Shown here one piece after another: positions 2,194-62,036 of a stretch of 64,000 nucleotides of DNA; the stretch's first letter is position 1, and every line of letters starts with the position of its first letter. This DNA comes from a virus (Duplodnaviria; Caudoviricetes). The stretch spans positions 93,490 to 157,489 of IMG/VR virus record IMGVR_UViG_3300028048_000059; one strand, 5' to 3'. The translations under genes and the position numbers were made by a program. A model generated the notes under the pieces. It did not search any database. It was not told where the DNA came from and saw nothing but the letters and a program-made list of their open reading frames with translations.

Positions 2194-2868
2194 TCAAAGA
2201 CTACCATCTATATAAAATTTTTTAATTTCTTTTTTAGCTTTTTCATTCTTCATATACTTTAATCCATTTAACCATCCTTCTTTCACTGTCCACCAAGTAT
2301 TTTTATTTTTAATAATTAAACTTGCTAGGGGATCTCCGATCCACAGTCTCCAACTAACATTATATTGTCCAAGAACGGGCCCGCATCCTCCTTCATATTC
2401 ATCTATTAAAATACTATTAATTTTTTTTACAGTCATACTATCAATTCCTATATATCTATCTTCATATATTAAAGAAAAATCTGGATATTTTTCTAAAAGT
2501 ATTAAAAATTCTTCAAAAGTAATTATTCTTGGTTCAGTATTATTAATAATATTATCTGCACGATTATCAATTAAAATTCCTTTTTCCATTTGTATTTCTT
2601 TTTCTCCCATTTTATTATAACCATTAGAAACTGTTTGATATTTTGTAATATAGTGCTGTTCTAATTTAAGAGCTTGTTCTTTAGATAAATTTGTATGTAA
2701 AATTTCTTTTTTAATATTATCCCAACCAAATAAAATTATTGGAATATAAACTTCTTGTCCTTTATAACCTTCACCGTTTGCCCATCTGTCTTTGGGATTT
2801 TGTTTAGTTAATCCTATATATAATTTTCCATCAGGAAAAGTGAATTTATAAATACTATAATTTTCCAT
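2194..2868 (-). CDS. Free-standing GIY-YIG endonuclease
   Basis: YSIYKF...LYIGLT...RW.NG.GY and E..YI...NGYN motifs; GGAGG RBS; very low GC. Confidence 0.8.
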   Translation of the reverse strand: MENYSIYKFTFPDGKLYIGLTKQNPKDRWANGEGYKGQEVYIPIILFGWDNIKKEILHTNLSKEQALKLEQHYITKYQTVSNGYNKMGEKEIQMEKGILIDNRADNIINNTEPRIITFEEFLILLEKYPDFSLIYEDRYIGIDSMTVKKINSILIDEYEGGCGPVLGQYNVSWRLWIGDPLASLIIKNKNTWWTVKEGWLNGLKYMKNEKAKKEIKKFYIDGSL

Positions 2869-2895
2869 ATCTTTCCTCCATAATTTCGCGAAGCG

Positions 2896-2944
2896 TCTCA
2901 ATATTTGCCGTGAAGCCCAACGGGCGGAGCGGCAAATATTGAGA
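2896..2944. repeat. 15-bp perfect inverted repeat (TCTCAATATTTGCCG) around a GC-rich loop
   Basis: 2896-2910 is the reverse complement of 2930-2944. Confidence 0.85.
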
Positions 2945-2947
2945 GAA

Positions 2948-3166
2948 AGTAGGAAAATCCTACTTGCCCATGATAATTATTTTTATTGTTATTATTATGT
3001 TCTTTTATTATGTTTTTATTATGTTATAGGTAGGAATTTCGGACAATTTTTCGGTAGGAATTTCTTACTTAATAATAAGTAGGAAAATCCTACTTGTCCG
3101 AGAAAAATTTCCTACCTAAAATATAGAACGATTTTCCTACCTAATAATAAGTAGAAAAATCCTACT
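2948..3166. repeat. Array A: about 7 full or half copies of dyad GTAGGAAAATCCTAC plus an AT-rich tract (2971-3027); iteron/origin-like
   Basis: Copies near 2948, 3028, 3053, 3077, 3106, 3131 and 3149. Confidence 0.8.
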
Positions 3167-3521
3167 AATTTTCCAAAGCTTCTAAATTGATAGTAATTGA
3201 TTCATACTCTTTAAATTCAATTATACCTTTTGCCGCGAGAGATTTACGCCGCTCTATATATGTATCATGTGACATACCTGTTCTATCTCTTATCCATTTT
3301 TCGGATGGATGAAAAGGACGTGTGGGATCATCAGTTTGTCCTATTAAAACTATAAGTAGTAGTCTGTCATTTGCTGTCAACCCTTTTTTCCCGCCTATTG
3401 CCACCAATAGTCTATCCGCGACACTTATACGTTGTTCGTTTTGTTGTTTCCATTTTTGCCCATTTATATATAAAGCTGGAGCATTGTTTTTACCTGTAAT
3501 CATCCTGAATTCCTCCTGCAA
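3165..3521 (-). CDS. Winged-HTH protein resembling the N-terminal domain of phage replication initiators
   Basis: LTANDRLLLIVL...HPSEKWIRDRTGMS...RKSLAAKGII pattern. Confidence 0.6.
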   Translation of the reverse strand: MQEEFRMITGKNNAPALYINGQKWKQQNEQRISVADRLLVAIGGKKGLTANDRLLLIVLIGQTDDPTRPFHPSEKWIRDRTGMSHDTYIERRKSLAAKGIIEFKEYESITINLEALEN

Positions 3522-3707
3522 TTAGTGCTTTTTTGCTATTGTTGCTGCTTGAGGAATGGCTGCGCGCAACTCAGGGGTATCTTCAAACCAATAAACATCA
3601 TATTGAGGTTTTTTTATATTAGCAGTCGTCTTTATTAGTTTAAACCCTAAATCGCGTAATGCCGCTGCGACCCTTGGCATATAAATTATATAAAGTTTAT
3701 CTTCCAT
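3522..3707 (-). CDS. Small conserved phage protein (DUF5659-like); paralog of 55604-55783
   Basis: GFKLI...N...VY.FE.T..LR.A motif shared with the paralog. Confidence 0.65.
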   Translation of the reverse strand: MEDKLYIIYMPRVAAALRDLGFKLIKTTANIKKPQYDVYWFEDTPELRAAIPQAATIAKKH

Positions 3708-3879
3708 TTTTCATTACCTCTTCCATTTTTTCTAATACTTTTATTGATGGATTTCTTGCACCAGAAAAAATCTTTGAAATATGAGAACGGCTGCACTCTA
3801 ATTTTTCGGCTATTTGTTCTTGAATCCATCCTTCTTTTTCACAAAAATTTTTAAATTGTTCTATAATATCTTTTACCAT
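3697..3879 (-). CDS. XRE/Cro-type HTH regulator
   Basis: QEQIAEKLECSRSHISKIFSG.RNPS motif; start uncertain. Confidence 0.75.
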   Translation of the reverse strand: MVKDIIEQFKNFCEKEGWIQEQIAEKLECSRSHISKIFSGARNPSIKVLEKMEEVMKNGR

Positions 3880-3958
3880 ACCTTTGTGACTTAGAGTCAC
3901 ATTCCTCCTATAAAGAAATAATCCTATCATAAGATAGGTATTATTTCTAATTTATTCT

Positions 3959-4177
3959 TTAATTATTTTTTTCAATTTTTTTAATTTCACATTCACTCAT
4001 ATATGGAAAATAAATAACATTATCTGCCCGATTATCTATGCGATCTGCCATTTCATATAATGAATTTTTTATATGCTGTTCAGCCTCGTCTGGCGAATAT
4101 CCATCTTCAATTAATGAGTCATAATATTCTTGTTCATCTGCGATAAAGGTGTAAGTTATTGATACTTGATATTTCAT
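3959..4177 (-). CDS. Hypothetical protein
   Basis: ORF track; AAGGAG RBS. Confidence 0.65.
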   Translation of the reverse strand: MKYQVSITYTFIADEQEYYDSLIEDGYSPDEAEQHIKNSLYEMADRIDNRADNVIYFPYMSECEIKKIEKNN

Positions 4178-4189
4178 ATTATCTCCTTT

Positions 4190-4579
4190 TTAATACGACA
4201 TCCAAAAAAACAACTTAACGCCTTGCGCAATCATGTCATCATAATTTTTATATAATTCGCACAATCTAGGAAGGCCGCTAAAACCATCAAAATAATCAGC
4301 ATGATAGCAATAAAAATCAATCATGTTTGCTAGATCCTTCTTGCTAATACGAACGTAATCGCCATCTTCTGCTTCAATTAGAGTTGGGATACTATTTACC
4401 ATATCCCAAAATTTGCGGGCGTACCATACCTCACATACATCTGGCCATTGAAAAGTGCCATTTTCATCATAGAAATTATTATTGAGAACGATTTCATCAT
4501 ATTCAAAGCGATCGTCGTAGTCATAAGTGTCAAGGTATTCGCGCTTCTTTGTTGCAACAAGTCCCATGTCGAGTCCCAT
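4190..4579 (-). CDS. Hypothetical phage protein (MGLDM...Y.RK family)
   Basis: MGLD start; own promoter. Confidence 0.7.
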   Translation of the reverse strand: MGLDMGLVATKKREYLDTYDYDDRFEYDEIVLNNNFYDENGTFQWPDVCEVWYARKFWDMVNSIPTLIEAEDGDYVRISKKDLANMIDFYCYHADYFDGFSGLPRLCELYKNYDDMIAQGVKLFFWMSY

Positions 4580-4609
4580 AGTTTTGCTCCTTTCTTTTCT
4601 CTTATGTTA

Positions 4610-4638
4610 ATTATAATATGATTTTTATTTGTTGTCAA
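4610..4638 (-). promoter_or_regulatory. Sigma-A promoter TTGACA-17-TATAAT
   Basis: Perfect consensus. Confidence 0.85.
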
Positions 4639-4657
4639 ATATATAAATAAGAAGACA

Positions 4658-5923
4658 TTAGGTTGTCTTCTTATTTTTTAAGATGAGATTTAGAATGATG
4701 CCAACAATCATCGCCAGTGCCGTAGTTCCAATACTTACAACCCCAAAATTACACACAGTGCCAGAAACGCCAAGCGTTAGGATTGCCGCAATAATTGTTA
4801 CATTTTTATTGTCATTCAAATCAATATTGCTGTCCTTAATAGTGCGAATACCAGAAAGAGTGATATATCCATACAGAATCGCTGCGCACCCACCAAAAAT
4901 ACAACTGGGAATACTAACGAGGAAAGCTTGTAGCGGCCCGATAAAAGCTGCAATGCCCATAATAATTGCTGCTAATGTAATAACATATTTAGAACAAATC
5001 TTACTAAAACCAGTTGTGCCAACGCTTTCTCCATAGCTCGTATTTGGCATCGCGCCAATGAGTGCGCCAAGAGCTGTGGCGGCGCCATCGCCCATGAGAG
5101 TAAAACCAAGTCCAGGATTTTGCGTTAAATCAGTGTTAATTACTGCACTTAATGCCTTATGGTCAGATGTATGTTCGCAAATTGTTACTAATGCTAACGG
5201 GAGGAACAGTAATAGAATTTGTGGGAGCCAACTCCAATTCCACTGATTAAAATGAGTGAAGGCAAAATCTGGCATTTGAAATAGATGCACATTGTTAAAT
5301 GCGCTAAAATCAATAATCTTAACTCCACAAACAGTTAATACAGCCGCGAAAGCATAAACAATTAAAATCGAAATTAAAAATGGTAAGTTTTTAATAAATC
5401 CCTTTCCATACTGTGAGATAAGAGCAGTGATGAGCAGCGTCAGAATACCTAAACCGAAACCAATTAAACTATATTGACCATTGATCTGAAAATATGTAGG
5501 GATAAAAGTGGCAAGATTCAGACCAATTACGGCTACAATTGGACCAATTACGACAGGTGGAAGCAACTTATTAATCCACGCTGTTCCAAAGTGATTGATG
5601 GCGGCGCCAACTGCAAAATATACAATGCATACAATAATACCACCAATAAATACTGCAAAATAATTTGGGACTGCGCCTAATGCTAGTGCGCCAGTAACTG
5701 CCGCGACAAATGCGCCAGATGAAGAAATAAACATTGGGCTTTGGCCGCGGGTAATCAGTTGATATAATAGTGTACCAAGCGCTGCGCCAAGCATGGCAGG
5801 CGCAATTGGCACGCCGCAAATAGTAGGAATTAGAATCGTGGCAACAAAGCAAGCAACTACTTGTTGTAGCGCTGCGACGACGAGCCGTCGCATGGGTAGT
5901 TTATCATTAATATTATATAACAT
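4658..5923 (-). CDS. uraA: NCS2-family uracil/xanthine permease (UraA/PyrP-like)
   Basis: Many TM segments; SSSGAF, LLPPVV.GP...IG and P.TSYGE..G (NAT signature) motifs; start MLYNIND with AAGGAG RBS. Confidence 0.85.
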   Translation of the reverse strand: MLYNINDKLPMRRLVVAALQQVVACFVATILIPTICGVPIAPAMLGAALGTLLYQLITRGQSPMFISSSGAFVAAVTGALALGAVPNYFAVFIGGIIVCIVYFAVGAAINHFGTAWINKLLPPVVIGPIVAVIGLNLATFIPTYFQINGQYSLIGFGLGILTLLITALISQYGKGFIKNLPFLISILIVYAFAAVLTVCGVKIIDFSAFNNVHLFQMPDFAFTHFNQWNWSWLPQILLLFLPLALVTICEHTSDHKALSAVINTDLTQNPGLGFTLMGDGAATALGALIGAMPNTSYGESVGTTGFSKICSKYVITLAAIIMGIAAFIGPLQAFLVSIPSCIFGGCAAILYGYITLSGIRTIKDSNIDLNDNKNVTIIAAILTLGVSGTVCNFGVVSIGTTALAMIVGIILNLILKNKKTT

Positions 5924-5924
5924 A

Positions 5925-6101
5925 TTATTCTCCTTCAATAAATTTCTTAATATATTCAATAAACTCTTGATCTTCCATATAAAAACAATCTCGTGTTCTA
6001 AAAACATTCGACATAAGTTGAGCAAGACGCCAGTCTGGCACTTTATGCCAAATTTCTCCGAGCTGTTGACAAATATTTTCAATACGATTTGGGTTTCTCA
6101 T
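5925..6101 (-). CDS. Small phage protein (MRNPNRI...W...PDWRL.QL), not in ORF track
   Basis: Hand translation, 58 aa; GAGG RBS. Confidence 0.6.
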   Translation of the reverse strand: MRNPNRIENICQQLGEIWHKVPDWRLAQLMSNVFRTRDCFYMEDQEFIEYIKKFIEGE

Positions 6102-7184: not shown

Positions 7185-8072
7185 TTATATTTCATAATTT
7201 GTTACCACGATTTCTCTTGTCTTGTTGCCGCCATCATTTACTGTATGTGTACAATGAGAATATGCAGGATTGTTGATGTCATGCACAAATAGATTGCCTT
7301 CATAACCATCTATCCATTGCTCTAAAATAGTATTGGTTTTGCCATGATGTTCAATAACATTCGATAATGCCCATTTAAACCCGAGGCTATGCGCATTATC
7401 TAAATAATTTAGAAGTTCTTTCTCATCATACTCATCCCATTTCTGCCATACTTCTAGCAATCCATTATTATATACTTGATTAGTAATAAGATATGGCGGG
7501 TCGAAATACAATAGCGTATTTTTTGGGTTGAATTTTATTAAATCAATTTGTGAAAAACTTGCATTATGTAATTCAACACCTTGAATCAGATTGTAAAATT
7601 TTTCAATGCTGTTGCGCTGTCTTGCAGAAAAATTAGAGTAACCGCGGCCAAATCCTGCATTAAATTGTAGGTTTTTGTTAAAACGCATTGTAAAATGGAA
7701 GCTAAATCTAGTTAAAGTATATAAATCCAATGGTGTATGATATTCAGAAATGTTATTATATGCATCACGATACGCTAAGAACCCTTCTTCATTTTCTTTG
7801 GATAATTCAAATTCATCGATACGTTTTTCAATAAAATTTAGAATTTCTGAAAATGAATATTGTTGAAAGGCTTGCATGATTTCAATTAAAAAACTATTGG
7901 CATCAACTGCAATTTTTTTATTTGCTGTCGCATTAATAGATACATCGCATCCACCACAAAAGAAATCAATTAATGTATCAATTTTTTGTGGAAATAGCGG
8001 CATTAATTGTTTCATAATTTGATATTTATTACCAACCCAATTAAATGGAGATTTTACATAAATCGCACTCAT
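7185..8072 (-). CDS. dam: DNA adenine methyltransferase (Dam/D12 class)
   Basis: SPFNWVGNK, D.FCGG and DPPY motifs. Confidence 0.9.
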   Translation of the reverse strand: MSAIYVKSPFNWVGNKYQIMKQLMPLFPQKIDTLIDFFCGGCDVSINATANKKIAVDANSFLIEIMQAFQQYSFSEILNFIEKRIDEFELSKENEEGFLAYRDAYNNISEYHTPLDLYTLTRFSFHFTMRFNKNLQFNAGFGRGYSNFSARQRNSIEKFYNLIQGVELHNASFSQIDLIKFNPKNTLLYFDPPYLITNQVYNNGLLEVWQKWDEYDEKELLNYLDNAHSLGFKWALSNVIEHHGKTNTILEQWIDGYEGNLFVHDINNPAYSHCTHTVNDGGNKTREIVVTNYEI

Positions 8073-54684: not shown

Positions 54685-54765
54685 TGTGTGTCCTTTCTTG
54701 CTTTCTGTAATTATTATAGCGCAATTTTGGGATTTTGTCAAGTTATTTGCGGCGTGAGCCGCCAT

Positions 54766-54980
54766 ATTTTTACTTTTATTTTTAATATCTTTATTTTAAC
54801 ATATTTTTATAGATATTTATATTTCTGTATGAAAAAATCTGGTGTTATGTATGTTTTTTTCATACAACTTTAAAAGTTGTGTGATTTTATCGGCTGAGTT
54901 GTATGAAAAAATCATACAACTTTAAGAAAGTTGTATGAAAAAACATGGCAATCCAATGTATGAAAAAATCATACAACTTT
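54766..54980. repeat. Array B: AT-rich tract (54766-54826) plus about 6 copies of dyad GTTGTATGAAAAAATCATACAAC
   Basis: Direct inspection. Confidence 0.8.
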
Positions 54981-55014
54981 CTCCGCAAGATATTCTTTTC
55001 GGCGCCAGCCGACA

Positions 55015-55227
55015 TATTTTTGTTTCCTTGTTTTTGTTTTATATTTGTTAGTATATCTGTATATATCTGTTACTGTATTCAAAATGACTACACTGTGTAG
55101 TCAAAATGACGGTGGGTGTATTCAAAATGACTACATTAAAAATCATTTTGATTGAGTGAATGTAGTCATTTTGAATGCAATGCCCGATGTGTGTAGTCAA
55201 AATGAATGTATTCAAAATGACTACATT
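55015..55227. repeat. Array C: T-rich tract (55015-55073) plus about 7 copies of dyad TGTATTCAAAATGACTACA
   Basis: Direct inspection; last copy overlaps the wHTH stop codon. Confidence 0.8.
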
Positions 55228-55571
55228 GAATGATTGCCTAATGGATAAAATGTATAACCTTTATTATTATCATTCTTTCTCAAATAGTTCAAAGAAACCA
55301 GAGTTTTGAATCCTCTTTGAGCGGTAGACTCGCTAATGTTAAAATATTGTTCTAATGCCGCGGGAGAGTAGTAAAAAGAAGCGTTAGTAATTCCATTAAA
55401 TTTCATAAGATATAACCAAATTTTAAACTCATTACCGTTTAGCTCACTAGTAACTAAAACTAATTGTTCCCATCTTAAAGAATGCAAAAAATCTTTATCA
55501 TTATCACGGCTCCAAATTTTATTTATTTCTGCCGAATTATTATAAATCTCCTTTTGATTAAAATAATTCAT
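55221..55571 (-). CDS. Winged-HTH protein (RepL/initiator N-domain-like)
   Basis: L.GNEFKIWLYL...SP.......ISEST.QR.FK.L....YL pattern. Confidence 0.65.
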   Translation of the reverse strand: MNYFNQKEIYNNSAEINKIWSRDNDKDFLHSLRWEQLVLVTSELNGNEFKIWLYLMKFNGITNASFYYSPAALEQYFNISESTAQRGFKTLVSLNYLRKNDNNKGYTFYPLGNHSM

Positions 55572-55603: not shown

Positions 55604-55783
55604 TCAGGATTGTTTAGTATCCTGGATTAATTGTGCGGCCGCATTTCGCAAAGCCGTTGTTTCTTCAAAATAATACACCTTAAAACCCTGATGTTTTCTA
55701 TTTGGCGCAATATTAATTAATTTAAATCCTTGCCTTTCAAGAATATAGGCGATCCGCCTCGAAAAAATAGGATATAGTGTCAT
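55604..55783 (-). CDS. Small DUF5659-like protein (MTLYPIFSRRIAYILERQGFKLI...), paralog of 3522-3707; not in ORF track
   Basis: Hand translation, 59 aa; AAGGAG RBS. Confidence 0.7.
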   Translation of the reverse strand: MTLYPIFSRRIAYILERQGFKLINIAPNRKHQGFKVYYFEETTALRNAAAQLIQDTKQS

Positions 55784-55797
55784 CGTATCTTTCTCCT

Positions 55798-55998
55798 TTA
55801 AATATCAAGATTGACCCAAAATTCTTTTAACTTTTTTATTTCTTCGCGTAAAGCTTGTTCTGTGTCAATTGACATATATTTGCTCGCGCCAGCAACCCAT
55901 TTTTGTACAGTTGATGGTGCCTTGTCTACTTTTTTAGCTAGTATTGCAATTGGATATCCAATATCACGAATTTGTCTTAGTAGTTCTTGCGTGGTCAT
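55798..55998 (-). CDS. Cro/XRE-type HTH protein
   Basis: LAKKVDKAPSTVQKWVAG; GGAGG RBS. Confidence 0.7.
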   Translation of the reverse strand: MTTQELLRQIRDIGYPIAILAKKVDKAPSTVQKWVAGASKYMSIDTEQALREEIKKLKEFWVNLDI

Positions 55999-56079
55999 AA
56001 TGCCACCTCCAAATTAATTGTGGCTACGCTATCCGCCGATCAGCGTATTTTACACCCAAATATTGCGGTGTAGCTGCCA

Positions 56080-56266
56080 TAGTTTTATTTTATCTATATT
56101 TTATTTATATTATATCTATATTATATTTATATTACTCTGGTAATTTTTACAGGAGGGTACTGTAAAAATTACCGTAACCTGCGGTAAAAATTACCAGAGC
56201 ATTCTGTAAAAATTACCGTAATCCTATGGCAATTTTTACCGCATTCAATGCGGTAAAAATTACAGT
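56080..56266. repeat. Array D: AT-rich tract (56080-56137) plus 6 copies of GTAAAAATTAC in both orientations
   Basis: Direct inspection. Confidence 0.8.
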
Positions 56267-56547
56267 ACAACGCTTCTATTATATGGTATACCGTTTTTCC
56301 GGATAGACGTTTAAAGACTGTCCGGATTTCCGGTATAGGTTGGCCGCTACGTTATTCGCCGACTAGCGTATTTTCGGACTGATCGGTCCGATTTTTATAA
56401 CAATGAATGGCACGAAAATCGTACCATTCAGATGGCAGTTATCTTGTGATTTTTACACTTTCTTCTTTTTTTAAAAATTTTTTAATAAAAATAGAATGCA
56501 GAGGCACAATTAATAGCCAAAGTTCATATAAAAACTTTGGCTTAAAA

Positions 56548-58650: not shown

Positions 58651-59760
58651 TTACATATTCTTAATTAGGGTGCGGGGTTCCATTCCTACCAAATAATCAT
58701 GTGCATTATCGCATTTATTATCTAACCGATTGAAAAGGAAATTACGTACAAGACCAGGGTACTGCAATGCTAGTGCCGCAAATTGCTTTCTATCGTTACC
58801 GAACGGCTGCACAAGTTGCCAAGCATCTTTCATTGCTTGCTCTTGCTCATGTAGCCACGAGACAATGGCGGCCACCCTATCGTTGAATTGCGGGAAAGAC
58901 CCAACAAAATCGTCTAAGGTGTTGTTTTGCCACATCTCCACAATGCTAGCATCGGTAATTACACCATTATTGAGGGTGTGGTGAAGCCGCAAATACTCGT
59001 CTCCCTTGACTTTAATTCGCAGAAAGCTCCCATCATACATAGTGTTGGCCCGCACTACAAATCCTTCATGGTTGCGGTCCAAGGTATGTGAGGCCTCAAT
59101 ACAATCGTCTAGTGAATTGAAATGATAGGTGCGTGGCACAAAGTTCTGGAAGGTTTCAGGAATTGTAGCGCTTTCTTCCATCGTTACCATGTTGCGGCAA
59201 CCCAAAAACCAAACTCTATTCTCCTGATACTGCACAACGATCGTATTGTAGGACGGTGCCACTAGTTCAAAATAGTAGCAATATTCTTTATTCAAATGCT
59301 GCATCCATCCATTTCCAAATTGCGCATTGGCAATTGTCATAAACAAATTACCAAAATTCACACCCCGGGCTGTGGCGCCCGTAGTTGCGAACGCATCGAT
59401 ACAATTGTTAGTGGAAACATGCCATCTATCATGCCACCATACCTTTATTAGTGAGCCATCGATTTTTTCCAACACATCAACGCCATCGTTCCAATGAATG
59501 AGGGGGGTAGCCGCATACGATTCGCCCCAATTGTGGAACTTGTCGAGTGCTCGCGCCACACATTTCCAAATTCCATCTTCATAGGTGAAAATGCTTCCTC
59601 TCGCTTCCTTTACCTCATCCAAATTGAAATCCGATTCGTACTGGTTGTAACGCAGTAGCCAGTAGTTGCTATCTTGCGTTGCAGAAATACAATAAGGTGC
59701 GGCCGCAAGTAGTTGCTGCCAATCGTTAGGGTGGTCATTCAGGAACTTTATTAACTTCAT
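58651..59760 (-). CDS. T4 Rnl1-type RNA ligase
   Basis: E.RG, KF.N, EKIDGS, FEL, EGFVV and K.K..EY motifs. Confidence 0.9.
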   Translation of the reverse strand: MKLIKFLNDHPNDWQQLLAAAPYCISATQDSNYWLLRYNQYESDFNLDEVKEARGSIFTYEDGIWKCVARALDKFHNWGESYAATPLIHWNDGVDVLEKIDGSLIKVWWHDRWHVSTNNCIDAFATTGATARGVNFGNLFMTIANAQFGNGWMQHLNKEYCYYFELVAPSYNTIVVQYQENRVWFLGCRNMVTMEESATIPETFQNFVPRTYHFNSLDDCIEASHTLDRNHEGFVVRANTMYDGSFLRIKVKGDEYLRLHHTLNNGVITDASIVEMWQNNTLDDFVGSFPQFNDRVAAIVSWLHEQEQAMKDAWQLVQPFGNDRKQFAALALQYPGLVRNFLFNRLDNKCDNAHDYLVGMEPRTLIKNM

Positions 59761-59783
59761 ACTTCTCGGCCTCCTTTTTCTTT

Positions 59784-59812
59784 ATTATAACAAAATTCCA
59801 ATCAAAAGTCAA
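59784..59812 (-). promoter_or_regulatory. Sigma-A promoter of the RNA ligase
   Basis: TTGACT-17-TATAAT. Confidence 0.8.
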
Positions 59813-59833
59813 GTGATAGGTTAAAGGAAATTT

Positions 59834-59998
59834 GAAAATGAAATGTCGTTTTTGCTGTTATGGGAAAAATGAAAATGAAATGTCGTTGCGGTTGTTTTAG
59901 GGCAAATAAAAATGAAATATCGTTTTCATTGTTTAATGGGATTTGAAAATGAAATGCTGTTTCCTTCATTCAGTAGGAAATGAAAATGAAATGCCAGC
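59834..59998 (+). repeat. Five direct repeats of GAAAATGAAATG(TCGTT) with exact 37-bp period
   Basis: Starts at 59834, 59871, 59908, 59945 and 59982. Confidence 0.85.
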
Positions 59999-60045
59999 TA
60001 TATCGAATGCGAAAACGAATTTCTGATTGTGTGATGCAACGACTA

Positions 60046-60152
60046 GCTCGAACGGCCCGCGCCTTTTGGCGCGCGGCTGCCGTTCGAGCGTAGCAGCCCT
60101 TAATTTAACTGTTAATTAACTGTTAATTAACTGTTAATTGGTTGTTAATTAA
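60046..60152. repeat. GC-rich hairpin (60046-60089) followed by tandem 11-mer TTAACTGTTAA
   Basis: GCTCGAACGGC/GCCGTTCGAGC with inner CGCGCC/GGCGCG. Confidence 0.8.
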
Positions 60153-60530
60153 TTTGTGTAATAAGGGTTGTGTATTTTGTACAATAGTTGTGTATGTTTT
60201 TTAATAAAAATGTATAAGGCCGCAATAACCATGGTTCCGCAATAAATGGTGCGTTGTTGTAAAACGGCATTATAGGGTTGTAAAAATGGTACCTCATCGC
60301 TACTGAAAGGAACGGAGGGGCTACTATCGCGCGACAACCATACCGAAAAAATGGTAGGGGTAATATTTTTTTCTGGGGCTGTGCATGGGTGGTGGTGGGA
60401 GGTAGGAGTGATAGGGGTATGCATTTTTTATTCAAAAATGTCAAATATTTGACTACTTTTATTTTATTTTTTGTATATTCTATCCAAAAACACATACTTT
60501 TTCAAAGATATTTTGGTATTTTTGAATAAA

Positions 60531-60755
60531 AAAAATCCTACCATTGGTAGGATTTTTGTATAGAAAAAATATGACAAAATTTTACCCCCACTGTCTGTTA
60601 ATAATACGTGGGGGTAAAATCCTGTCACCTTTTTTTCTGCCTTATTTTACACCTGAAAAAAAATTTTTTGTGGTAGAAAATGGTATTGAAACAAAAATGA
60701 GTGACAAAATTTTACCCCCACTTATTATATAGAGAGTGGGGGTAAAATCACGTCA
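60531..60755. repeat. Array E: palindrome AAAAATCCTACC-ATT-GGTAGGATTTTT and two inverted pairs of TGACAAAATTTTACCCCCA
   Basis: Copies at 60572/60610 and 60702/60737. Confidence 0.8.
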
Positions 60756-62036
60756 CTTTTTTTGGATAATACTGTAACGTGTTTTGTTGTTACGTTGTTC
60801 AACTACTTCCCAACCACAAGCTTCCAATGCCTTTTTCAAACTAGGCCATTTCTTTGGGAAATTTAAAATCCGTAACAACTCATTTTTGTCTTCTGTTGTT
60901 AGTTTTCTTCCGATGTAATTGTCCGGTATCTTTGCGCAGTAATCCTTCAACTCATCAATAAGTTTCTGATGCGATTTTTCATTTTTGTTCCGCTCATGAT
61001 TGTAGTACCCGACCACTTCCATGTCCTGACGCATGCGGCCTCTCGCTTGTTCACGTGTATCGCTATTCCCCGTATGGATGTACATTTCTTTCACTAGTGG
61101 ATCCTTGATACTGATGGCAGTTTCATAGGCACTATTGATAAGAAGATCTTGAACTTGCGGCGGCAGCCTGTGATCACTCAGCACGTAGTCTCGCGTAGTG
61201 AGCGCTTCTTCACTCATGGGTGTGGCCGCATTCAGTGACCAGATTGCTTCCGCCTGTCTGCCGCATTCCAACAAAATGTTTTTGTACTTGTTCAGTTCTT
61301 TTACTGTGTTAAAGTAAAAAATGCGTTTGCGGTTTTCAGGTAGCACCGCTCGTAGAATGGGTTCGATCTCAGTGTACTCGAAGGAATAGAGAATCTCGTA
61401 GGCCCGCAATTGTTGGCTAAACCGCACCTCATTGATGATGTCGCCTAGTTTGGCAAGATCGTACTTGTACAATTGACTAGGAGTGGCGGTCAACGCAAAC
61501 ACCCATGCACTTTCTTCCTTCAACACCTTATAGATGCTGTCTAGTGCAATGTAGGTGTAACATGTCATTTGCAACATATCATTAATTTCCCATGGCATTG
61601 CTTGGGGATACTGCTTTTTTAATTTTCCGCGCGACATACCAATGTACTTGTTAAGAACATGCACTTCATCGCACACAATGTATTCGTAATCTTCTAAATG
61701 AAGTTCTTGCTTTTTTACTTTTGCGCCGAACAACGCATAGGTCATTACGGTAGGTTTGTCTTGCGGCGCCTGGAATGGAGTGTCCCACTCATTACTATTT
61801 TTGGTTTCAAAAAAGTAGGCTAAATCGTTGTACACAAATTCTTCCTCACCAGAAACAGTGTTGATGAGGATGAGAGAGCGGTGCGGCGACACCTTCAAAT
61901 GATCGGGGATGGTTTTGAAGGCTGCGGTGGTTTTTCCGCTACCGCAGGACGCAATTATGAGGTTGAGCTTTCCTTTCGCAAAGCTGTCATATTCAATTAC
62001 TTCGGAGATGAAGTTTCCAGTCGCCAGACGGCTCAC
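60753..62036 (-). CDS. SF2 (DExH) helicase-like, possibly origin-binding, protein
   Basis: GSGKTT, DEVH, TAT and Q.RGR.R motifs. Confidence 0.8.
   Translation of the reverse strand: MSRLATGNFISEVIEYDSFAKGKLNLIIASCGSGKTTAAFKTIPDHLKVSPHRSLILINTVSGEEEFVYNDLAYFFETKNSNEWDTPFQAPQDKPTVMTYALFGAKVKKQELHLEDYEYIVCDEVHVLNKYIGMSRGKLKKQYPQAMPWEINDMLQMTCYTYIALDSIYKVLKEESAWVFALTATPSQLYKYDLAKLGDIINEVRFSQQLRAYEILYSFEYTEIEPILRAVLPENRKRIFYFNTVKELNKYKNILLECGRQAEAIWSLNAATPMSEEALTTRDYVLSDHRLPPQVQDLLINSAYETAISIKDPLVKEMYIHTGNSDTREQARGRMRQDMEVVGYYNHERNKNEKSHQKLIDELKDYCAKIPDNYIGRKLTTEDKNELLRILNFPKKWPSLKKALEACGWEVVEQRNNKTRYSIIQKK

Follow-up and report, generated by a model that had tools for sequence, protein, structure and literature searches.

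The locus described here has its closest known counterparts in replication origins at which an initiator protein acts on iterons beside an unwinding element, a principle that is classical. [quoted passage not shown] The iterons of phage lambda are 19-bp imperfect inverted repeats beside an A/T-rich tract, and two iterons together with the tract make up the minimal unwinding unit (PMC7466680). The PLE satellites swap RepA_N/ori modules, and the nuclease Odn of the phage ICP1, which copies the RepA N-terminal domain, attacks PLE (PMC8263062). Here we analyze a stretch of 64,000 nucleotides, called the window below, which comprises bases 93,490-157,489 of the 157,489-bp IMG/VR virus record IMGVR_UViG_3300028048_000059 (Caudoviricetes; estimated completeness 91%). 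It contains two cassettes, each with a gene for a small winged helix-turn-helix (wHTH) protein whose stop codon overlaps an array of inverted repeats (dyads) that is followed by an A/T tract and a hairpin.

With moderate confidence, we read these cassettes as iteron-type replication origins that have initiators consisting of an N-terminal domain only and that are exchanged as cassettes. The wHTH protein of 110-150 amino acids (aa) would be the counterpart of the origin-binding N-terminal domain of RepA_N, DnaD-type or O-type proteins, without their C-terminal domain, and its dimers would bind the dyads that begin at its own stop codon, the putative sites being inverted repeats that meet on a short A tract and lie about two helical turns apart. 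The nucleoprotein complex may then destabilize the adjoining A/T tract, a strand-asymmetric stretch of 55-80 bp that a GC hairpin delimits, and the DnaB-like helicase, primase and DnaE-type polymerase of the phage would enter at the opened tract. Transcription of the cassette, which would run through the array, may help to activate it and is probably controlled by a Cro-like XRE gene, while the product of a DUF5659 gene would be an accessory factor to which no role is assigned. Exchange of the wHTH gene with its array would yield many specificities, and the phage would carry two complete cassettes (with modules A and B) and two orphan origin modules (C and D).

Nearly all genes of the window are carried by the minus strand. 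In the order of transcription, cassette 1 and its surroundings contain the following features:

4610..4638, minus strand: sigma-70-type promoter, TTGACA-17-TATAAT, 12 of 12 consensus matches
3697..3930, minus strand: XRE/Cro-like helix-turn-helix (HTH) gene, Pfam HTH_3, E=7.7e-12
3522..3707, minus strand: DUF5659 gene, 61 aa, Pfam E=1.4e-6, over the Pfam cut-off
3165..3503, minus strand: likely gene of wHTH1 within the open reading frame (ORF) 3165-3521, HTH_36 E=2.2e-5, phrog_270
3030..3165, no strand: proximal block of array A, five GTAGGA-AAA-TCCTAC dyads at 24-25 bp spacing, plus a half-site
2970..3028, no strand: A/T tract of 59 bp in ~12-bp units, with 38 T and 15 A on the plus strand, A-rich on the gene strand
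2949..2963, no strand: distal perfect dyad of array A, beyond the A/T tract, at the same place in seven of seven relatives
2887..2944, minus strand: hairpin region that ends the module, a 15-bp stem with a GC mini-hairpin in its loop, then a CGC-loop-GCG mini-hairpin
2194..2868, minus strand: GIY-YIG homing-type endonuclease gene, Pfam E=1.5e-7, phrog_314, directly after module A

All elements that an initial annotation had described between 2896 and 3930 from the letters alone, that is, the genes, the repeats, the tract, the hairpin and the GIY-YIG gene, are present where it placed them. Its estimate of about seven repeat copies is fair, as there are six full dyads (at 3151, 3126, 3079, 3054, 3030 and 2949) and a half-site near 3106. 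The wHTH gene is also as described and matches HTH_36, but the length of 118 aa is not retained: the start is most likely the ATG at 3503, which has GGAGG ahead of it and gives a protein of 112 aa that matches the relatives of 110-112 aa. The XRE gene probably has its true start internally, near 3879, the GIY-YIG gene probably starts with the ATG at 2868, and the promoter at 4610-4638 probably drives an operon of p129, p72, XRE, DUF5659 and wHTH1.

In gene-strand order, the TAG stop codon of wHTH1 sits inside the first proximal dyad. The sequence GTAGGAAAATCCTAC, with up to three mismatches, has 12 strand-matches in the window versus 1.47 expected, a number that none of 100 shuffles reached, and nine of the 12 are concentrated in 2949-3165. 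With respect to A/T content, the tract of module A ranks in the top 14 of the 50-mers in the 157-kb genome, and it is a candidate DNA-unwinding element. The arms of the hairpin stem (2896-2910 and 2930-2944) form 15 perfect pairs, and among seven sequences the pairing is kept despite sequence change, with compensatory changes at 11 of 22 pairs.

Cassette 2 shares its gene order with cassette 1 and differs in its dyad sequence, as had been proposed for 55.2-56.0 kb; the first gene is weakly HTH-like there:

55798..55998, minus strand: first gene of cassette 2, 66 aa, weakly HTH-like, phrog_8 3.1e-4, PF01381 E=0.073
55604..55783, minus strand: DUF5659 gene of cassette 2, 59 aa, Pfam E=9.8e-8
55221..55571, minus strand: wHTH2 gene, 116 aa, HTH_36 / DnaD-N-like, Pfam 7.7e-7, phrog_186 5.9e-8
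54999..55224, no strand: module B, six GTAGTCA-AAA-TGACTAC dyads (55075-55224), A/T tract (55013-55074) and GC hairpin (54999-55012)

The array of module B overlaps the stop codon of wHTH2. The two DUF5659 proteins are 45% identical, and both pass the 23.6-bit cut-off of the family (PF18903) with 28.5 and 32.2 bits as proteins and 30.4 and 26.5 bits in the genome search. The two wHTH proteins cannot be aligned by BLASTP and are linked by hidden Markov models (HMMs) through intermediates. For HTH_36 (PF13730), which has a cut-off of 25 bits, wHTH2 scores above it with 29.3 bits and wHTH1 is borderline, with 24.6 bits as a protein and 25.8 bits in a six-frame search. Beyond these two of each, the whole genome has no DUF5659 gene and no wHTH gene of the family.

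The dyad sequence tracks the wHTH subtype rather than the flanking genes. The following sites were found behind the stop codons of wHTH genes:

GTAGGA/GTCGGA-AAA-TCC(T/G)AC: behind the wHTH of cassette 1 of the window and of the loci L005-L011
GTAGTCA-AAA-TGACTAC: behind the wHTH of cassette 2 of the window and of L016, L017, L040, L073 and L080
CCACGA-AAA-TCGTGG: behind the wHTH of L039 and others
GTACCAAA-TTTGGTAC: behind the wHTH of L063 and L020
CGCCAGATTCTG: behind the wHTH of L070
AAAGGTGGCRCTCC (a direct repeat): behind the wHTH of L082
TGTATGA-T6-TCATACA: behind the wHTH of L074
CNGTAA-AAA-TTACNG: behind the wHTH of L044, L144 and L145

A repeated 8-mer is shared by 80% of the wHTH pairs at 60% identity or more, by 19% at 40-60%, by 4% at 25-40% and by 0.1% below 25%, percentages that are descriptive and uncorrected for shared descent. 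The co-variation of protein and repeat across related phages that the initial annotation had suggested looking for is thus seen, in that shared 8-mers rise with wHTH identity. At locus L020, the DUF5659 protein is 90% identical to that of the window, yet another wHTH and another dyad follow it, and the DNA homology of the window to L020, L023, L025 and L036 ends at the junction between the DUF5659 and wHTH genes. These sequence comparisons suggest that related phages exchange the wHTH gene in one piece with its array, the exchanged segment having the DUF5659 gene on one side and the conserved tract end on the other. The conserved tract ends and the conserved DUF5659 gene make plausible homology arms for such an exchange.

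The seven IMG/VR relatives of wHTH1 (L005-L011, 75-97% identity) all have the same succession of stop codon, TAGGA/TCGGA dyad array, (ACATAATA)n tract, extra dyad, long hairpin and CGC-loop-GCG hairpin, after which there is a TTGACA/TATAAT promoter and then a next gene that differs. The TAGGA and TCGGA half-sites do not match recognizable changes in the recognition helix, and since arrays mix the two, that position of the half-site is probably degenerate. The relatives of wHTH2 are 50-73% identical to it; those at 50-54% identity have an unchanged dyad and tract, and at 35% identity there is a relative with the same layout and another dyad.

A scan of IMG/VR with a DUF5659 alignment gave 66 loci, mostly on contigs of 160-190 kb, several of which have two copies, and 64 of the loci were evaluable for the downstream gene. 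A wHTH of the family (108-166 aa) is located directly downstream of DUF5659 in at least 59 of these, two further loci have a wHTH-family match nearby, and three exceptions have a longer DNA-binding protein in the wHTH position, one of which is a 210-aa protein (L078) that matches PF04492 at 3.2e-5, below the cut-off, and HTH_36 weakly. The scan for repeats and A/T tracts covered 57 DUF5659/wHTH loci. In 47 of the 49 distinct loci, the sequence immediately after the wHTH stop codon contains an 8-mer in three or more copies, and an array, an A/T tract and a GC hairpin were found behind the stop codon at every locus inspected downstream. The examined relatives do have the downstream arrays whose absence from homologs had been named as an outcome that would speak against a joint unit of protein and sites. 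The tracts lie ~90-230 bp behind the stop codon and are always A-rich on the sense strand, and ATATGG with a short GC hairpin ends the tract in 27 of the 46 listed modules, whatever the dyad type.

The XRE, DUF5659 and GIY-YIG genes are not constant parts of the module. The gene upstream of DUF5659 usually encodes an HTH_3 protein of 60-75 aa, which is missing or replaced in L009-L011. In a ~97%-identical strain from an independent bovine gut study of 2025 (run X2), 842 other bases replace the XRE gene (3722-3903) on one contig, which keeps the DUF5659 gene, wHTH1, the array, the hairpin and the GIY-YIG gene, and the contigs of another run (X3) terminate at the XRE gene. Among 13 near-complete genomes of the clade, picked independently via the helicase gene, 11 contain DUF5659, nine of them in two copies. 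The two genomes without it (G010 and G014) are complete with terminal repeats and have the XRE gene followed directly by the wHTH gene, the array, the tract and the hairpin (L144 and L145). Because XRE is replaceable and DUF5659 dispensable, the constant unit consists of the wHTH gene, the array, the A/T tract and the hairpin. The "mini-initiator plus origin" unit of the initial annotation therefore stands as a conserved wHTH-array-tract module with diversified specificity, but not with the three-gene core proposed for it. Its suggestion that the cassette is mobile by means of the adjacent nuclease did not hold either: the GIY-YIG gene is missing at this position in seven of seven relatives (L005-L011) and is present in the near-identical strain of run X2, and since it is missing in the seven relatives we take it to be a local insertion outside the module. 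An Odn-like function was also considered for the GIY-YIG protein and was rejected, as a comparison of its C-terminal part with the wHTH profile gave an hhalign probability of 0.1. At one further locus (L043), wHTH-family genes are located on both sides of the DUF5659 gene (1996-2286 and 2667-3167).

The predicted structure of wHTH1 (AlphaFold2, pLDDT 91) supports a placement of the protein with the N-terminal domains (NTDs) of origin-binding or primosome proteins. The top five of 48,161 chains in a VIA comparison are 4pta (Z 8.9), 5wtn (8.8), 2vn2 (8.3), 4ro3 (8.2) and 8ojj (8.2), which are the RepA NTD of pSK41, the primosome protein DnaB, a DnaD NTD, the RepA NTD of PLE and a DnaD NTD, respectively. 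The alignment with 4pta covers 81 residues at a root-mean-square deviation of 2.5. Generic regulators follow from Z 7.6, and the margin of the replication proteins over generic wHTH proteins is modest. Foldseek searches against the PDB gave nothing at E<=0.001 for the models of wHTH1 or DUF5659, and the rows for wHTH1 were weak and generic winged-helix proteins. The profile of the wHTH family matches the DnaD NTD over nearly its full length (2v79, E=1.3e-3) and the RepA NTDs at E ~0.06, and the Pfam DnaD_N match of wHTH2 is weak.

An all-against-all HMMER comparison identified remote homologues of 180-350 aa that carry the wHTH domain at their N-terminus and match the PHROG annotations "replication initiation O-like" and "DnaD-like helicase loader" beyond the N-terminal domain. 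The match of wHTH1 itself to phrog_270 ("replication initiation protein") is confined to its N-terminal part, and the O-like PHROG matches of wHTH2 are weak (2.8e-4). The likeness to replication initiators that had been drawn on initially is in this way supported, by the longer relatives and by the fold matches. wHTH1 (112 aa) and wHTH2 (116 aa) end right after the wing and have no C-terminal domain. At its N-terminus, the wHTH has a conserved MANY-NQ / NAP-L sequence. A third weak wHTH match in the genome (84364-84630) was set aside as an unrelated 116-aa wHTH protein without an array. Its gene (L013:6166-6516, genome 84166-84516) encodes an Ala/Lys/Glu-rich tail, is located beside a gyrase A-like gene, has a terminator and a promoter of its own that looks perfect, and lacks a repeat array.

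The DUF5659 protein is predicted to have a beta-alpha-beta-beta-alpha fold (AlphaFold2, pLDDT 89). A "split MotA" idea was dropped, as the Foldseek rows for MotA domains were weak and such domains were not among the top hits of VIA. A complex prediction for wHTH1 and DUF5659, run without controls, scored 0.00 and is informative neither way. No fused forms of DUF5659 were found, which is weak evidence, searches of NCBIfam and the ESM Atlas gave nothing beyond DUF5659, and a full-text literature search returned no paper that mentions the family.

Among the proteins encoded by the phage are a DnaE-type polymerase (in two ORFs), a primase, a DnaB-like helicase, RecJ, subunits of topoisomerase II / gyrase and one subunit of an exonuclease, and the two wHTH genes are the only initiator-like genes of the genome. 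Like the RepA_N replicons, the cassettes combine an N-terminal domain of wHTH fold with an adjoining set of repeated inverted-repeat sites on a short A tract, and all dyad types found here (the GTAGGA, GTAGTCA, CNGTAA, TGTATGA and CCACGA types) have the form of RepA_N iterons; in both, the N-terminal domain and the origin are exchanged as one module among relatives (PMC8263062). Unlike RepA_N, the phage proteins (110-150 aa) lack the host-specific C-terminal domain, the sites are located behind the stop codon and not inside the gene, and a long A/T tract with a conserved end and a GC hairpin are attached. The setting is also different, namely a large phage with its own replisome, usually two cassettes plus orphans, and XRE and DUF5659 as partner genes.

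The resemblance to lambda O and its origin, which has four to six iterons in Shiga toxin (Stx) phages (PMC7466680), consists of several dyad iterons beside an A/T-rich tract, an N-terminal domain of the wHTH type and an operon headed by a Cro-like regulator, and longer homologues of wHTH1, as well as wHTH2, match the "O-like" PHROG. However, the origin lies outside the gene, the phage wHTH proteins have neither a Phage_rep_O match nor the P-binding C-terminal half, and no gene for a P-like loader is adjacent. From the DnaD/DnaB primosome of Firmicutes (DDBH1; PMC2978336, PMC10201434) comes the only near-full-length profile match, that to the DnaD N-terminal domain, with a fold similarity of Z 8.2-8.8. 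In contrast to DnaD, the DDBH2 domain (DnaB_2) is found neither in the wHTH proteins nor in the genome, and the DnaD N-terminal domain oligomerizes without binding DNA, whereas the co-varying arrays imply that specific sites are recognized here.

Phage T4 is a large phage with its own replisome and several origins, one of which, oriE, has iterons and the small proteins RepEA and RepEB. It has this one iteron origin with a dedicated small protein and not a family of interchangeable specificities. To our knowledge, essentially no origins of large uncultivated phages have been described. The present cassettes are new in having a proposed initiator of minimal domain content, a tract and hairpin that stay constant, and their particular partner genes, and also in the arrangement of several cassettes and orphans in large phages and the evident cassette exchange.

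In addition to the two cassettes, the window contains two modules that are complete but not adjoined by a wHTH gene:

54749..54990, no strand: module C, orphan, TGTATGA-A5-TCATACA dyads (54826-54990), A/T tract (54763-54830) and GC hairpin (54749-54762)
56065..56265, no strand: module D, orphan, six CNGTAA-AAA-TTACNG dyads (56138-56265) at 22-24 bp spacing, A/T tract with 11-bp periodicity (56078-56137) and GC hairpin (56065-56077)

Module C shares 77% identity with the array and tract that come after the 142-aa wHTH of L074. Module D is 79% identical to the array and tract of L044, beginning exactly at the stop codon of that wHTH gene. No cognate wHTH for either module was found in the genome, which has only the two family members, and the matching proteins are those of other phages. 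In A/T content, the tracts of modules C and D hold the top two places among all 50-mers of the genome, and the A/T tracts contain repeat units of 11-12 bp. The GC hairpins of modules C, B and D (54749-54762, 54999-55012 and 56065-56077) are followed on the plus strand, antisense to the genes, by CATATTTTT, and their scores are those of intrinsic terminators of antisense transcription. On either side of module D lies one copy of a 29-nt direct repeat (56023-56051 and 56346-56374; 86% identity), which may be the scar of the recombination that brought it. Upstream of module D (56270-56430), there are solitary dyads of other types, GGTACGATTTTCGTGCC at ~56406-56428, TCGGACTGATCGGTCCGA at 56374-56391, and CCGGAAATCCGG-like sites, which have the appearance of leftovers from former arrays at a recombination hot spot.

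Several observations weigh against the interpretation of the cassettes as origins. Neither wHTH protein matches Pfam RepA_N (PF06970) at E<=0.1, with no match at E<=1 genome-wide, and the genome has no match to Phage_rep_O (PF04492) at E<=1. The main weakness is mechanistic, in that the C-terminal domain, which is thought to contact the helicase or primase in O, DnaD and RepA_N, is missing. Since the DnaD N-terminal domain does not itself bind DNA (PMC7145576), the fold alone is no proof of origin binding. For DUF5659, the VIA-wide comparison gave only common alpha/beta arrangements at Z<=5.2, and Foldseek was uninformative. The co-variation percentages may include an effect of shared descent. 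Because the extremes of the GC skew follow the switches of the gene strand, the skew cannot locate an origin and was not used, and a large non-coding region at 59.76-60.75 kb that is rich in repeats competes with the cassettes as a candidate origin. Finally, in a single infection, orphan arrays that lack their cognate protein would not fire as origins.

The same parts could also serve transcription control, with the wHTH as a repressor, activator or roadblock, the 3' array as an operator or insulator that sets read-through or the firing of the next early promoter, the A/T tract as curved upstream DNA and the hairpin as the transcript end. The winged-helix fold is generic, with many regulators matching at Z 7-7.6, a Cro-like XRE protein is encoded along with the cassette, the antisense strand of the GC hairpins gives terminator scores, and many modules lie 20-60 bp upstream of perfect TTGACA/TATAAT promoters. 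However, several modules have no promoter behind them (L039, L145 and module A, with the GIY-YIG gene directly next to it), more than 100 bp, including a 60-bp A/T tract, separate the arrays from the promoters downstream of them, and five to nine phased sites with a conserved-end A/T tract exceed the needs of an operator. The top matches by structure and by profile, like the longer homologues, belong to replication and not to regulation, and we consider this explanation unlikely. A centromere-like or genome-organizing site, at which the wHTH would coat the array as a ParR/TubR-style adaptor to segregate, tether or compact DNA, appears very improbable. A small wHTH with a phased array does resemble TubR/tubC and ParR/parC, and TubR gives a weak profile match (E=0.26), but no NTPase gene (ParM, TubZ or ParA) is located in or beside any cassette in the window and the 66 loci, to which this search was confined. 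The neighbors of the cassettes are XRE, DUF5659 and variable small genes, known centromeres are located upstream of their operon and do not need an A/T tract, and here too the best structural matches are replication N-terminal domains.

Proteins that consist of the N-terminal domain only would also suit an interference or incompatibility device, in which a dominant-negative binder and its arrays, with the orphans C and D as decoys, block or titrate the initiators or origins of relatives or satellites; such a device would not serve to initiate replication of the phage itself. Lambda iterons carried on a plasmid are inhibitory to rep-lambda phages (PMC3349717), and the exchange of RepA_N/ori modules by PLE satellites takes place under phage nuclease attack (PMC8263062). 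The match of the orphan arrays to the protein specificity of other phages and the rapid, modular turnover of specificities would be consistent with this as well. Each protein, however, adjoins an A/T tract and its cognate array, both of them superfluous for a pure inhibitor, and no other initiator was found in the genome. Every complete genome of the clade that was checked keeps at least one wHTH, with modules wherever inspected, and an essential function therefore fits better than an accessory weapon. We judge it improbable that the cassettes are such devices, and the reading as iteron-type origins is retained.

A more far-reaching proposal, which we hold to be speculative and rather doubtful, is that the origin specificities are interchangeable, that the orphan origins of some genomes are fired or titrated only by the initiator of a co-infecting phage, that origin specificity has become a battleground of cheating, incompatibility or exclusion, and that DUF5659 is an accessory that links the mini-initiators to the replisome. 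DUF5659 was a candidate for such an adaptor, an idea weakened by its absence from two complete genomes and by the lack of an informative fold match.

The cassettes provide concrete candidates for origins, each with protein and sites, for a whole clade of 160-190 kb rumen phages, with at least eight natural specificities available as ready-made swaps, and they give DUF5659 its first functional context. They suggest that an initiator can shrink to a bare origin-binding domain, which sharpens the question of how a replisome is recruited in RepA_N-type systems. The orphan modules and the cassette exchange point to an origin conflict among co-infecting phages that would parallel the arms race between PLE and ICP1, but between full-size viruses.

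The public runs that contain the window are bovine gut or rumen metagenomes. They were taken as contigs, and depth is hence not readable as copy number. One RNA run has exact contigs at 1624-1897 and 4005-4656 and none on the DUF5659 and wHTH genes, and is uninformative on expression. Among GenBank phages, tblastn searches with DUF5659, wHTH1 and wHTH2 and a megablast search with the region gave no match. Rfam searches of both cassette regions returned only sub-threshold miRNA-hairpin artefacts on the inverted repeats.

The repeat-rich region at 59760-60750 contains five units with GAAAATGAAATG that are ~37 bp apart (59830-59995), a GC-rich palindrome (~60040-60093) and four tandem TTAACTGTTAA units (60105-60140), followed by two near-identical units of ~65 nt (60572-60640 and 60702-60765), each of which ends in a 13-14-bp hairpin and a T run. 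No Rfam family scored above the threshold in this region, which could be another origin, a packaging site or a set of small-RNA genes. The gene for the alpha subunit of the DnaE-type DNA polymerase III is split into two ORFs (L012:9317-11650 and L012:12097-13494; genome 71317-75494) with ~450 bp between them. The first encodes the PHP domain and part of the NTPase domain and the second the rest of the NTPase domain, the finger and HHH, and the gap is probably an intron or another insertion.

Upstream of cassette 1, the gene at 4658-6082 encodes a multi-pass membrane protein of 474 aa that by eye resembles a nucleobase (uracil/xanthine) permease and is kept in six of the seven relatives at 40-84% identity. 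The only other perfect hairpin in the genome with the design of the module A hairpin lies outside the window, at 7492-7534 of the genome, and has a 14-bp A/T-rich stem and a GC-rich loop of 15 nt that forms a mini-hairpin of its own, with GTCGCG coming next.

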